Part shown: positions 25,218 to 28,863 of the stretch, piece by piece
Position numbering within the stretch: position 1 is the first letter of the stretch
Layout: the number at the start of each line of letters is the position of its first letter
Assembly (NCBI GenBank): GCA_016196885.1
Contig: JACPWU010000024.1
Coordinates: forward strand, 1 to 32,000
Direction: 5' to 3'
Length of the DNA: 32,000 bases
DNA from: Chlamydiota bacterium
GTDB lineage: Bacteria > Auribacterota > JACPWU01
The notes under the pieces: model-generated
The model's input: the letters and a program-made list of their open reading frames with translations, nothing else
Told to the model about the DNA's origin: nothing
Databases searched by the model: none
Made by a program: the position numbers and the translations under genes

Positions 25218-26441
25218 ATGGCTGTGGTGGTGATTTTATTCGCGTTGTTGGTGGCCTATGGTTCTTTGGAGCATCTTCTGCATCTCAGGAATCGTAACGC
25301 CATCCCCTTACGCATTCATGTCAATGGAACCCGTGGAAAATCCAGTGTGACGCGTCTCATTGCAGGGGGATTGCGAGCGGGCGGGATGAGGGTTTTGGCC
25401 AAAACCACTGGAACAGCTCCGATGGTGATTTTGGAGGATGGAGCTGAAAGTCATATTTATCGCCCCGGCGCCGCAAATATTATTGAACAGGTGAAATTCT
25501 TTGCCAAGGCGAGGGAGAGAAAGGCCCAGGCGATTGTTCTAGAATGTATGGCCTTGGCTCCCGTGTTGCAGGAATTGGCGGAATCAAAGATGGTTCGCTC
25601 TCATATCGGGGTGATCACCAATGCGCGGCCTGATCATCTGGATGTGATGGGTCCAACTTTAATGGATGTCGCAGAAGCCTTATCTAAAACCATTCCTCGA
25701 AAAGGGAAGCTTTTCACCGCTGAGAATCAGCCCGAGATGATGAAACAATTGGAGGACGGGTGCCGAAAGAAAGGAAGCGAGATCATCTTTAGCTCTGAAG
25801 GAGAAGTCGAGTCGGAAAAAATGAAAGGCTTCGGCTACATTGAACATCGCGAGAATGTGGCTTTGGCCTTAAAGGTTTGTGAATCTTGTGGAGTGGATCG
25901 AGACACCGCTTTAACGGGGATGATCCAAGCCATTCCAGACCCAGGTGTATTAAGGATTTATCAGATTCATTTTTTTGACAAAGACATTCAATTTGTGAAT
26001 GCCTTTGCGGCCAATGATCCTGACTCGACGACCATGATCTGGAATTTGGTGATGAAGGGGATCGAGCCCGATCGCAGGAAAATCGTCTTGGTGAATGCAC
26101 GGGCCGATCGCATTCAAAGAAGTGAGCAATTGGGTGTTTTGATTGCGAGAAGTCTCCCTGCAGATGTTTCGATTTTAGCGGGGGACTTTACCAAGGCCAT
26201 TCAAGATGAGGCCATTCAGTTGGGACTGGATGAGAAGAGAATAGAAAATCTGGGTGGACAGACGGTGGAGACCCTTTTTGAAAAGGTTTTAGATTGTACC
26301 CCAGAACGCTCGATCGTGTTTGCCGTTGGCAATATCGGGGGGATGGGACAAGAAATTGTGGATTTCTTTAAGCATCGAGGAGGCTCTAGTGATTCAGGAA
26401 GCTATTGGGCTGGGCCTGGTTTTAAGCCTTATCTTTTCTGA
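25218..26441 (+). CDS. pgsB: Poly-gamma-glutamate synthase PgsB/CapB
   Basis: N-terminal TM helix, then IPLRIHVNGTRGKSSVTRL...KTTGT...ECMA...GVITNARPDHLDVMGPTL...PDPG...FAANDPDST...NARADR. From memory, this is colinear with B. subtilis PgsB. Confidence 0.9.
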   Translation: MAVVVILFALLVAYGSLEHLLHLRNRNAIPLRIHVNGTRGKSSVTRLIAGGLRAGGMRVLAKTTGTAPMVILEDGAESHIYRPGAANIIEQVKFFAKARERKAQAIVLECMALAPVLQELAESKMVRSHIGVITNARPDHLDVMGPTLMDVAEALSKTIPRKGKLFTAENQPEMMKQLEDGCRKKGSEIIFSSEGEVESEKMKGFGYIEHRENVALALKVCESCGVDRDTALTGMIQAIPDPGVLRIYQIHFFDKDIQFVNAFAANDPDSTTMIWNLVMKGIEPDRRKIVLVNARADRIQRSEQLGVLIARSLPADVSILAGDFTKAIQDEAIQLGLDEKRIENLGGQTVETLFEKVLDCTPERSIVFAVGNIGGMGQEIVDFFKHRGGSSDSGSYWAGPGFKPYLF

Positions 26442-26832
26442 AATTTTTGGCTTGGCCGCGGGTGGGATGGTGGTGCCGGGTTATCTTTCTTTGCAGCTTC
26501 ATCATCCCCTGAGGGTTGTTGCAACCCTTTTGGTGGCGTTGGCCACTTATGGGCTGGTTCGGTTTCTCTCTAATTTTATGTTTATTTATGGCCGGCGCAG
26601 AACCGTGGTCACGATCTTAATAGCCTTTATTCTAGGATGGTTATCGAGAAGTTTTTTTTCTTGGGATATTCATGAATTTCACGTTGAAATTCGGGCGATC
26701 GGGTACATTATTCCGGGGCTTATGGCGATCTGGATGGAAAGGCAGGGGGTGACAGCGACCCTCTCGACTTTGATCATCGTGTCTGTCCTGGTTCGTATGA
26801 CCTTGATGGTTTTGACGGGGGGAAGATTTTAA
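26389..26832 (+). CDS. pgsC: Poly-gamma-glutamate biosynthesis membrane protein PgsC/CapC
   Basis: GTG 26389 has GAGGAGG 6 nt upstream and gives 147 aa. LSLIFSEIFGLAAGGMVVPGYL...TYGLVRFLSNFMFIYGRRR...IGYIIPGL matches the B. subtilis PgsC pattern. Overlaps the pgsB 3' end by 53 nt. Confidence 0.88.
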   Translation: MIQEAIGLGLVLSLIFSEIFGLAAGGMVVPGYLSLQLHHPLRVVATLLVALATYGLVRFLSNFMFIYGRRRTVVTILIAFILGWLSRSFFSWDIHEFHVEIRAIGYIIPGLMAIWMERQGVTATLSTLIIVSVLVRMTLMVLTGGRF

Positions 26833-26833
26833 A

Positions 26834-27943
26834 ATGAGTGAACGGAAAATTTCCAAAACCACGTTGATCGGTCTTGCGGTGCTCGCGATCCTTTTATTTA
26901 TGCTGGCCTACCACTCTCGGGAATTGGTTCGACAACCTTGGCATACGGAGAAGTTGAGGGCGGCTCGTCTGGCGTCAGCGGCTCAAAATGCGATCAAGAT
27001 GAGGGCGATAGAAAAAGGTCTTGTCATTGACGCTGTGAATGATCCGAATTTGACGGGACTCATTGGTCAGGAATATACAGATATTACGACCGACCGTGGT
27101 GTTTTAGAGGCGAAGCTCACCAGCACCAATCCTAATTTTGCTGCTGGGGTCGTAGACATGCTGAAAAGGGCTGGTTTGGCCAAAGGCGATTGTGTGGCCG
27201 TGGGTGTAACAGGCTCCATGCCCGCGATGAACATCGCTGTTTTGGCCGCCCTGGAGGCTTTGGATCTTAAGCCTCTCATCATTTCGTCTGTGGGAGGGTC
27301 CACATGGGGGGCAACCAATCCTGAATTCAATTGGCTGGACATGGAAAGTTTTCTTTTTGAGAAAAAGATTTTTCACGCCTGTTCCGTTGCGGCTTCCATT
27401 GGGGGAGGACGGGACAATGGGCGGGGCTTGAGTGCCTTGGGCCGGCAGTTAATCGAGCAGTCCATTCGTAAAGTGGGCATGACCCTCATTCATGAAAATA
27501 GCCTCGAGGATTCCATTCGAAAGAGGATGGAGATTTATGATCAGTACGCCCAGTCCAAACCCATCAAGGCTTATATCAATGTGGGAGGAGGCCTTGCCTC
27601 TTTGGGGGCTGCCATCAATGGCACTTTGATTCCACCGGGCCTTTCCAAAAATTTGGCCATGAAAAATTTTCCTGTGAAAGGGGTGATTGTTCAAATGGCT
27701 GGGCGGGGGCTTCCTGTGATTCATTTGCTGAATGTGGAAAGGATTGCCCGCGCCTATGGTCTCCCCATTGCCCCTCAACCTTTGCCAGAGATTGGGGAGG
27801 GAAGGGTGTTTATTGAAGAGCGACATCATGTGATGATTACCCTGCTTTGCATTTTACTGTTGGTGGGCGGCATCACCGTTTTCGTAAGGTTGGATTTATT
27901 TCATCATCTTTTTTTAAGAAGGGTTAAGCAGGTACCATTGTGA
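26834..27943 (+). CDS. Bitopic membrane protein of the PGA operon. It is not PgsA/CapA-like and may belong to the 'poly-gamma-glutamate system protein' family.
   Basis: 369 aa with TM helices at both ends (LIGLAVLAILLFMLAY and ITLLCILLLVGGITVFV) and a large middle domain. I see no metallophosphatase-type motifs. The start is 1 nt after the pgsC stop. Confidence 0.6.
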   Translation: MSERKISKTTLIGLAVLAILLFMLAYHSRELVRQPWHTEKLRAARLASAAQNAIKMRAIEKGLVIDAVNDPNLTGLIGQEYTDITTDRGVLEAKLTSTNPNFAAGVVDMLKRAGLAKGDCVAVGVTGSMPAMNIAVLAALEALDLKPLIISSVGGSTWGATNPEFNWLDMESFLFEKKIFHACSVAASIGGGRDNGRGLSALGRQLIEQSIRKVGMTLIHENSLEDSIRKRMEIYDQYAQSKPIKAYINVGGGLASLGAAINGTLIPPGLSKNLAMKNFPVKGVIVQMAGRGLPVIHLLNVERIARAYGLPIAPQPLPEIGEGRVFIEERHHVMITLLCILLLVGGITVFVRLDLFHHLFLRRVKQVPL

Positions 27944-28863
27944 GAACAGCTTTCTATCTTAGAATGATGATGTTTTTTTTATTTTTAAGCGCCTTGAGCG
28001 GTTATGCAAAAAGCCTGGTGTGGGAGGAATATCCTCTTAAACAATACCATGAGAAAGTGGAGATCCATTTCAAGGAATCCAAATCCAACTATTATACTGT
28101 GACGCAGGATAACCCCTTAGAGGTTCAGTTCCGAGGGCCTCGGAAGGTGCTGGTACATGTTCGAAATACCTTTACGAAAAATGAAGCCGAAACACAAGAA
28201 TATCATTTGAGCATTCTTCAGGACGGCCGAAATTTTGATGAGTATGTCTTCCGATCTAAACCCAGTTCCTCATCTGTCTTGGCGAGTAACCCCCAGCTTC
28301 AGCTTGGAAAAATCAGGAAATTTGTGGTCGAGGTTCCAGAGGGAGTGCATGTGTTCCGATTTTTCCCTCCAGAGACGATGGAGAATCATCCCTTCTTTTT
28401 AAGATTTTTTGTGTCGGAGCCCACTTCCAAACATGATAAAAAAATCGCCATGAGTCCGGAAAAATACAACCAGGTGGTGAATTTGATTTATAAAGAAAGG
28501 GAATTCACTTACTATCGAGCCACGAAGGAGAAGCCTCTTGAAATTGGCGTGATTGGTCCCACGGAGTTAAAGGTCATCAGTCGTTTGGAATTTCATCGGA
28601 GGATCAAGGGACAATTCTCTTATCAAATACAAGTCTTTCAAGATGATCAGTTGACTCAAACTCGGCAATATCGGACCTACAAGTCAGACATTGTCTCGTA
28701 TGCCAAGGTCACTTCCTTAACGCCGGGGCGGTCTCGCTCGTTCACCATTTCTGTCCCCAAGGGAAGACATGTCTATCGCCTGGCTCCCGTGGCCTTGGAG
28801 AAGGGCTCTGTCCTGATGAAAATTTTAATCCCGCGAAAAGATGTCGGGGTGGTGGAGGAGTGA
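27940..28863 (+). CDS. Secreted hypothetical protein made of two tandem homologous ~125-aa domains
   Basis: The GTG start overlaps the upstream stop as GTGA. The signal peptide is MMMFFLFLSALSGYAKS. The internal repeat pairs YYTVTQDNPLEVQFRGP...FVVEVPEGVHVFRFFP with YYRATKEKPLEIGVIGP...FTISVPKGRHVYRLAP. Confidence 0.6.
   Translation: MRTAFYLRMMMFFLFLSALSGYAKSLVWEEYPLKQYHEKVEIHFKESKSNYYTVTQDNPLEVQFRGPRKVLVHVRNTFTKNEAETQEYHLSILQDGRNFDEYVFRSKPSSSSVLASNPQLQLGKIRKFVVEVPEGVHVFRFFPPETMENHPFFLRFFVSEPTSKHDKKIAMSPEKYNQVVNLIYKEREFTYYRATKEKPLEIGVIGPTELKVISRLEFHRRIKGQFSYQIQVFQDDQLTQTRQYRTYKSDIVSYAKVTSLTPGRSRSFTISVPKGRHVYRLAPVALEKGSVLMKILIPRKDVGVVEE

Follow-up and report, generated by a model that had tools for sequence, protein, structure and literature searches.

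A candidate poly-gamma-glutamate operon of Auribacterota in which pgsB and pgsC are followed by pgsW and a gene for an exported tandem beta-sandwich protein

The first 32,000 nucleotides of contig JACPWU010000024.1 (assembly GCA_016196885.1, named Chlamydiota bacterium and placed in Auribacterota by GTDB; this whole stretch is called the window below) carry a chromosomal operon of the order pgsB-pgsC-pgsW-gene 4 and, probably, EIIA. We read it, with modest confidence, as a poly-gamma-glutamate (PGA) operon in which PgsW and the product of gene 4 handle the polymer made by PgsB and PgsC. PGA is a virulence capsule as well as an industrial biopolymer, and what is understood of its machinery comes almost wholly from Bacillus, where the role of PgsA is itself unsettled. 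PgsB and PgsC are well known; PgsW has a family name in the databases but is uncharacterised. What is new is the large family to which gene 4 belongs, the near-obligate association of this family with PgsW, now and then as a fusion, and the division of PgsW systems into two architectural classes, with a minimal four-gene form linked to nitrogen-regulatory genes. The core features are the following, in window coordinates:

25218..26441, + strand: pgsB, Mur-ligase-like PGA amide ligase of 407 amino acids (aa); TIGR04012, PF08245, GTRGKSS P-loop, N-terminal membrane anchor
26377..26383, + strand: GAGGAGG Shine-Dalgarno sequence for pgsC, inside the 3' end of pgsB; read from the sequence, with a 5-nt spacer to the GTG at 26389
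26389..26832, + strand: pgsC, polytopic membrane subunit of 147 aa counted from the GTG; TIGR04011, PF14102, hydrophobic segments; 53-nt overlap with pgsB
26834..27943, + strand: pgsW (gene 3), 369 aa, a predicted transmembrane helix, a periplasmic alpha/beta domain of about 300 aa and a second transmembrane helix; TIGR04332, AlphaFold2 (AF2) model
27940..28863, + strand: gene 4, predicted Sec-exported basic protein of 307 aa with two jelly-roll beta-sandwich domains; AF2 model, profile search, synteny, fusions

PgsB, PgsC and PgsW

PgsB scored 443.5 bits on TIGR04012 (cutoff 222.7) and also matched PF08245, and PgsC scored 136.9 bits on TIGR04011 (cutoff 96.45) and 121.7 bits on PF14102; the two scores are about 1.4- to 2-fold the respective equivalog cutoffs. 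PgsB is 35.6% identical to CapB of Bacillus anthracis (phmmer with CapB, E 8e-72), and a hydropathy scan placed its hydrophobic segment at residues 1-23. By these profile scores, PgsB and PgsC are genuine PGA synthesis proteins, as an earlier sequence-only reading of this DNA had recognised. The same reading had described the junctions correctly: pgsB ends with a TGA at 26439-26441, inside the 53-nt overlap with pgsC; pgsC ends with a TAA at 26830-26832 and is separated by 1 nt from the ATG of pgsW at 26834; and pgsW shares a GTGA overlap with gene 4 (27940-27943). Its proposal of a coupled unit of four genes (25218-28863) holds for the four open reading frames (ORFs) and their coordinates but not for the end of the unit, which continues to the EIIA gene at 28865.

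In Bacillus subtilis, cells that have PgsBC and lack PgsA still make and excrete PGA; PgsA is dispensable, and its loss shifts the D/L ratio of the polymer (PMC6029982). We searched the six-frame translation of the window with phmmer, using as queries CapA, CapD and CapE encoded by B. anthracis pXO2 and the NlpC/P60 protein of a Streptomyces pgs locus. No relative of CapA, CapD or the NlpC/P60 protein was found in the 32 kb at E<=10, in agreement with the earlier statement that no CapA/PgsA-type protein follows pgsBC and that CapD and PgdS are missing. CapE gave no match in the window at E<=10 either, with the limits that a poorly conserved peptide of 47 aa is hard to detect and that frames of at least 30 aa were searched. 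Neither the gene 3 nor the gene 4 protein matched PF09587 (PGA_cap) in Pfam at E<=0.1. The idea that gene 3 encodes a divergent CapA was rejected on this negative result, on an hhalign probability of 0.14% between a PgsW family profile (46 sequences) and CapA, and on the different fold class of the protein.

On TIGR04332 ('poly-gamma-glutamate system protein', cutoff 100) the gene 3 protein scored 324.5 bits over model positions 2-307 of 307; this is the family to which the sequence-only reading had suggested that it may belong, and to which NCBI assigns the symbol pgsW in a RefSeq-derived record. The AF2 model and a hydropathy scan place hydrophobic helices at residues ~8-27 and 333-365, on either side of a domain of about 300 aa, a topology already proposed from the letters, and basic residues can be read on the cytoplasmic side of both helices. 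The model is of high quality (predicted local distance difference test score, pLDDT, 92; predicted TM-score, pTM, 0.86) and shows a doubly wound alpha/beta domain between the two transmembrane helices; the charge of this domain is near neutral. A Foldseek search of the PDB with the model returned no neighbour at E<1e-3 (best E 1.4e-3, TM-scores about 0.2), and a profile search of PDB sequences gave no match. A relationship to ClpP/SppA-like peptidases was considered and is not supported: the Pfam CLP_protease match over the YINVGGG segment had an E-value of 0.083, which is below threshold, the order of motifs is reversed compared with ClpP, and no ClpP/crotonase structure was present among the Foldseek matches.

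An alignment of 59 PgsW sequences, to which divergent members including a 36%-identical Cetobacterium protein had been added, contains 17 invariant residues (A43, D70, G78, G89, K94, P100, A103, S128, S156, G159, G190, G191, D194, G196, N249, G252 and S256). In the AF2 model four consecutive parallel strands carry most of these residues at their C-terminal ends. The C-terminal strand edge of such alpha/beta folds is the classical site of a ligand-binding or catalytic crevice, and the invariant residues of PgsW may mark a crevice of this kind.

The PgsW family is large, with at least 1,101 matches and with relatives in 537 GTDB species genomes. The nearest metagenome-assembled genomes (MAGs) to the window are labelled Candidatus Auribacterota or 'Chlamydiae bacterium': the closest genome for PgsW is a Candidatus Auribacterota MAG (75% identity), and an 80%-identical protein from a MAG with the second label is among the matches listed. 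A literature search, which left most subscription journals outside its scope, yielded no paper that deals with TIGR04332, with pgsW or with the family of gene 4, and nothing relevant on pgsB or pgsC in Bacteroidota or Ignavibacteria. Fusobacterium nucleatum, which we take to be the only Gram-negative with reported PGA, is absent from the named PgsW matches, where Cetobacterium and unnamed Fusobacterium species are present; a link of PgsW to F. nucleatum is for this reason not supported.

Compared with the PgsBCA(E)/CapBCADE systems of Bacillus, the window operon has orthologous PgsB and PgsC, the same order of pgsB, pgsC and a third gene, and the same tight coupling. PgsW and PgsA/CapA occupy the same operon slot, and both are membrane-anchored proteins with a large extracytoplasmic domain. 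However, PgsW is unrelated to CapA in sequence, its alpha/beta fold has no PDB match and it carries an additional C-terminal transmembrane helix. The window operon differs further by the absence of PGA_cap/CapA, CapD and PgdS (and no CapE was detected), by the exported basic tandem beta-sandwich protein of gene 4, which has no counterpart in Bacillus, and by its host, a presumed diderm from an uncultured lineage.

Gene 4 and its pairing with PgsW

A hidden Markov model (HMM) of the gene 4 protein, built from word-seeded matches, was run on 80 reference-genome (GTDB species) loci that had been retrieved with PgsW and are those most similar to the query. A gene 4 homolog was found directly 3' of pgsW in 79 of them; the sole exception (L066) is rearranged after pgsW. 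Four more loci, reached from gene 4 homologs, have the pair beside pgsBC as well, and in all 84 window-type loci pgsW immediately follows pgsC in the third position. Genes 3 and 4 are thus conserved beside pgsBC in related genomes, and this check of the sequence-only reading, like the one on CapA, came out in its favour. The order pgsB-pgsC-pgsW-gene 4 spans Bacteroidales, Ignavibacteria, Nitrospirota, Zixibacteria, Fermentibacteria, Cloacimonadota, Stahlbacteria and Auribacterota, and homologs of only about 25% identity to gene 4 still occupy the fourth position of such operons in other phyla, for example in an Eisenbacteria MAG.

PgsW and gene 4 also occur as single polypeptides. In three fusion proteins of 672-693 aa (P0163, P0216 and P0236), which came up in the profile search with gene 4, the N-terminal half contains a complete TIGR04332 domain (297-317 bits) and the C-terminal half a gene 4 domain. 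They are mutually only 34-37% identical, and at least three divergent lineages fuse the two proteins. Two of the fusions were confirmed in pgsB-pgsC-fusion operons of independent assemblies with zero ambiguous (N) bases. Each fusion retains the second transmembrane helix of PgsW and a third hydrophobic segment that matches the leader of gene 4, so that both domains should lie on the same side of the membrane. Rosetta-stone fusions of this type argue for a physical or functional partnership of PgsW and the gene 4 protein. Median identities between the window proteins and their homologs in distant phyla are 54% for PgsW, the most conserved, 48% for PgsC, 47% for PgsB and 29% for gene 4.

The gene 4 protein matched no family in Pfam (E<=0.1) or NCBIfam, and consequently belongs to no Pfam family of carbohydrate-binding modules (CBMs); this agrees with the earlier remark that it is not recognisable as part of any described PGA machinery. 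A search of PDB sequences with the gene 4 profile gave no match either. Its N-terminus is signal-peptide-like, and homologs carry canonical Sec leaders (MKK followed by a hydrophobic stretch), in line with the earlier description of a secreted protein; a lipobox-like motif was present in only 1 of 75 family members. The AF2 model (pLDDT 83) shows two beta-sandwiches. The N- and C-terminal halves align with each other with an hhalign probability of 99.2% (E 1.2e-19), which reveals an internal duplication, and the repeats, of about 135 aa each, have in common the motif GP...R...Y...P-G-H. One family member, P0265 (446 aa), apparently has three beta-sandwich repeats rather than two.

Foldseek matched the model to tandem CBM51 and CBM22, to malectin-like ectodomains, to PNGase F and to BcsB. 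For tandem CBM51 and CBM22 the probability is up to 1.0, with TM-scores of 0.2-0.36 and identities of 7-14%; for BcsB and the tandem CBMs (CBM51, CBM22, malectin-like) together, TM-scores are 0.19-0.36 and identities 6-14%. The tandem CBMs and BcsB are, like the gene 4 protein, exported or periplasmic jelly-roll proteins, of the same fold class, and they contact a nascent or extracellular polymer; gene 4 differs in lacking membership of their sequence families, in being far more basic, and in its putative ligand, an anionic polyamide instead of a glycan. The window protein has a net charge of +12 and a pI of 9.6, and the mature domains of the family have a median net charge of +18 and a median pI of 9.8 (n=75). 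The pI exceeds 8.5 in 99% of these 75 members, compared with 43% of background ORFs. Such strong basicity would suit the binding of a polyanion.

A word-seeded search retrieved only 15 relatives of gene 4, and the gene at this stage could pass for a rare orphan. Profile searches overturned this view: an exhaustive search returned 822 representative clusters at E<=1e-3, of which 181 at E<=1e-30. Fast-evolving families such as this one can look orphan in k-mer-seeded searches. In conclusion, gene 4 belongs, to judge from profiles and gene order, to a large unnamed family that is a near-obligate partner of PgsW in one branch of PgsW systems.

Fifth gene, chromosomal setting and related clusters

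The coupled unit runs beyond 28863, since the ATG of a PTS_EIIA_2 gene lies at 28865, 1 nt after the stop codon of gene 4, and the operon therefore probably extends to this fifth gene. The remaining features in and around the operon are:

25114..25141, + strand: candidate sigma-70-like promoter, TTGAAT-16-TAAAAT with a TG extension, in the divergent intergenic region 5' of pgsB; tentative, from position only
28854..28860, + strand: GGAGGAG Shine-Dalgarno sequence for the fifth gene, inside the 3' end of gene 4; read from the sequence
28865..29326, + strand: fifth gene, stand-alone PtsN-like EIIA-2 of 153 aa; PF00359 at 120.5 bits, IPHG histidine motif (GLAIPHGK)
29411-29896: TlpA/ResA-like redoxin, after a gap of 84 nt from EIIA
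29948-32000: GlnE, 3' of the redoxin, running off the end of the window

On the more specific models the EIIA protein scored below cutoff, with 78.3 bits on TIGR01419 (PtsN; cutoff 138.7) and 93.7 bits on TIGR00848 (fruA EIIA; cutoff 103.5). A PtsN-like EIIA follows the core throughout the window lineage (L003-L006), and in the relative L003 it is kept at the same position with 62% identity. L003 is the closest long contig, and its positions 8956-16913 carry, in order, EIIA, a family 2 glycosyltransferase (GT2), DUF2064, the redoxin, GlnE, a gene with a nuclease domain (SNase), glutamine synthetase (GS) and PII. The GT2 and DUF2064 genes (L003 9473-10817) stand between EIIA and the redoxin, where the window has only an A/T-rich spacer of 84 nt (29327-29410). 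The EIIA-GlnE neighbourhood points to a possible link between nitrogen or glutamine status and the synthesis of PGA.

Elsewhere the window contains a ribosomal-protein/SecY/Adk/Map/RpoA cluster, genes for MurJ and for a DUF4139 protein, and, as a divergent group, those for PabB, a class-IV aminotransferase and an acyl-CoA ligase; because of these neighbours, the setting of the pgs operon is core chromosome and not a mobile element. Promoter-like sites upstream of pgsB were not above chance (8, compared with 5.9 +/- 2.3 expected from shuffled sequence), and a terminator scan gave nothing beyond chance level. An Rfam scan of the window returned zero matches, and so there is no sign of a known riboswitch or leader 5' of pgsB. 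Upstream of the pgs operon and divergent from it, the class-IV aminotransferase gene (20993-21850, - strand) overlaps pabB (21840-23258, - strand) by 11 nt; its product is most likely PabC. Class IV aminotransferases also include D-amino-acid aminotransferase, a known supplier of D-glutamate for PGA. The DUF4139/DUF4140 protein (592 aa, 19138-20916) is encoded directly 3' of MurJ.

Bacteroidales, Ignavibacteria and other members of the FCB group have the identical four-gene core in unchanged order (PgsW about 54% and gene 4 about 29% identical to those of the window). An extended cluster surrounds this core in 67-68 of the 84 window-type loci, most of them from FCB-group genomes. Upstream lies a C25 (gingipain/PorU-like) peptidase of about 1250 aa with a propeptide and a type IX secretion system (T9SS) sorting tail; downstream follow a protein of about 381 aa two positions after pgsW (the +2 protein), an LVIVD beta-propeller, an HGSNAT-like membrane acyltransferase and a repeat protein of about 409 aa. 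Example coordinates for the extended cluster, which was noted among L007-L084, are L015 2400-6164, L050 10226-11371, L071 3342-4355, L060 12156-13268 and L035 13505-14734. The +2 protein gives the impression of an outer-membrane barrel, which is unconfirmed, and a PDB sequence search with it gave no match; it is not a paralog of PgsW (hhalign probability 0.3%). None of these families is present in the window, whose lineage has EIIA and GlnE instead. This C25-core-LVIVD-HGSNAT cluster appears to be undescribed.

A second class of PgsW system is formed by six more distant loci (L088-L093), from Cetobacterium somerae, a cultured member of the Fusobacteriaceae, and from five metagenomic sources, with scores of 270-357 bits on TIGR04332. 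The pgsB-pgsC-pgsW genes of C. somerae plasmid p1 belong to the same three families in the same order as those of the window, and its PgsW has two transmembrane helices and the 17 invariant residues. Fusobacteriaceae PgsW proteins are about 36% identical to that of the window, are shorter (310-365 aa) and are accompanied by no relative of gene 4. Their loci differ from the window, which has none of these additional genes, by a module composed of a gamma-glutamyltransferase (GGT; CapD-like, E ~1e-60), DUF6305, a DctM-like permease, a small ORF, an AstE/AspA-type hydrolase and sometimes a C69 peptidase, followed by pgsB-pgsC-pgsW; some members have no adjacent pgsBC. PgsA-less arrangements also exist with other partners. 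A Streptomyces plasmid (L086) has pgsB-pgsC-NlpC/P60-GT39, and a Chroococcidiopsis plasmid (L087) has pgsB, an unusually long pgsC of 333 aa, a hypothetical protein and an HlyD-family adaptor.

Possible mechanism and alternative readings

The reading that we favour is as follows. PgsBC would form an ATP-driven complex in the inner membrane that links glutamate units by gamma-amide bonds and moves the chain outward; this role is assigned because of equivalog-level family membership and of the work in Bacillus on the sufficiency of PgsBC. PgsW, anchored by its two helices, would handle the emerging polymer on the periplasmic face, most likely as an enzyme (trimming, transfer or release) and not as a passive scaffold; its invariant Ser, Ser, Asp, Lys and Asn residues and glycine-rich loops are placed by the model at the C-terminal edge of the parallel beta-sheet. 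The gene 4 protein would dock on PgsW and bind the periplasmic polyanion so as to escort or retain it, a role loosely analogous to that of the carbohydrate-binding domains of the cellulose synthase subunit BcsB. Finally, the PtsN-like EIIA and the downstream GlnE would probably tie synthesis to nitrogen or glutamate status.

Several observations weigh against this reading or narrow it. The likeness of gene 4 to CBMs is one of fold class only, because the TM-scores do not exceed 0.36, and its high pI could equally be explained by binding to anionic lipids or lipopolysaccharide. The proposed catalysis by PgsW is drawn from its conservation pattern. In the literature searched, no experimental PGA production is on record for a system of this type. 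The figure of 79 of 80 loci for gene 4 comes from loci chosen for their similarity to the query, and gene 4 is missing from 6 of 6 loci of the distant PgsW branch; gene 4 is therefore the hallmark of one PgsW branch, and the figure applies there only. Two loci of the distant branch (L091 and L092) have PgsW with the GGT module and no pgsBC within 7 kb. The gamma-glutamyl enzymes at loci of this branch, and the lack of nearby pgsBC at these two, speak against PgsW being simply a synthase subunit. Lastly, in two Ignavibacteriales (L037 3305-5224 and L052 3271-6300) a T9SS-secreted PKD+PGA_cap protein occupies the slot 5' of pgsB in place of the C25 peptidase. The presence of a PGA_cap protein alongside PgsW and gene 4 makes it too simple to say that PgsW replaces CapA; a CapA-type domain can, as these gene orders indicate, be a secreted surface protein and coexist with PgsW. 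The statement in the sequence-only reading that TIGR04332 is found next to pgsBC in PgsA-less species is borne out by the position of pgsW at window-type loci, with two corrections: the family does not strictly exclude CapA-type domains, as these two Ignavibacteriales show, and it is not invariably next to pgsBC, as at L091 and L092.

These observations bear on a serious, if rather less probable, alternative, in which PgsW is an enzyme of PGA turnover or remodelling, namely an extracytoplasmic serine-type gamma-glutamyl hydrolase or transpeptidase, and gene 4 its substrate-binding module, the pair cutting, shortening, recycling or re-attaching the polymer. We keep it mainly because of the association of PgsW with gamma-glutamyl-processing enzymes: distant TIGR04332 members (270-357 bits) stand beside GGT, AstE/AspA-type hydrolases, C69 dipeptidases and a DctM-like permease, and PgsW occurs in L091 and L092 with no pgsBC within 7 kb. 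The invariant S128, S156, K94, D70, D194 and N249, together with the glycine-rich loops, are arranged in a crevice pattern such as catalytic sites typically have, and PgsW is conserved more than the ligase PgsB. However, at window-type loci PgsW adjoins pgsC in all 84 cases and GGT, AstE and C69 genes are absent, and PgsW has no likeness in fold or sequence to a known hydrolase family (Foldseek E 1.4e-3; ClpP E 0.083). Moreover, this alternative overlaps the preferred explanation, which already permits catalysis. It is improbable that the system makes no free capsule or slime, and instead adds gamma-glutamyl residues or a short glutamyl chain to an envelope acceptor, or fills a periplasm-retained osmolyte or nitrogen store, with PgsW and gene 4 handling the acceptor. 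The window lineage lacks the barrel-like +2 gene and the other accessory genes of most of its relatives, and hence has no visible local route across the outer membrane; its neighbours are nitrogen-regulation genes (EIIA and GlnE, with GS and PII in relatives), and PGA from these phyla is not on record in the literature searched. Against this stand the scores of PgsB and PgsC, at about 1.4-2 times their equivalog cutoffs, the 36% identity of PgsB to CapB and the clear homology of PgsC with CapC; in addition, export components could sit elsewhere in the genome, and the outer-membrane-barrel nature of the +2 gene is an impression. That gene 4 plays no part in the system, being an unrelated neighbour or a wrongly called ORF, is hardly credible: the lack of a family annotation and the 15 word-seeded matches could be taken in its favour, but it is refuted by the synteny and fusion data (822 clusters, 79 of 80 loci with the gene immediately after pgsW, homologs of about 25% identity in the same position in other phyla, and fusions to PgsW), to which the confident AF2 fold and the motifs conserved in both halves are added.

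PgsW and the gene 4 protein may, we propose tentatively, constitute an unrecognised periplasmic PGA-handling module and define a distinct class of PGA system in about ten phyla (FCB-group, Nitrospirota, Auribacterota). PgsW would then be a serine-type enzyme of new fold, gene 4 the founder of a new family of tandem jelly-roll domains that bind polyanions and dock on PgsW, and synthesis would be wired to nitrogen through EIIA in the window lineage. In general, lineages keep the PgsBC core and attach extracytoplasmic partners of their own to it, and many mostly uncultured bacteria pair this core with two uncharacterised extracytoplasmic proteins. Being minimal and portable, the four-gene version of the window lends itself to tests of what such partners of PgsBC do in export, chain length, stereochemistry and anchoring, and the locus could supply parts for PGA production in Gram-negative hosts as well as a candidate PGA-binding domain.

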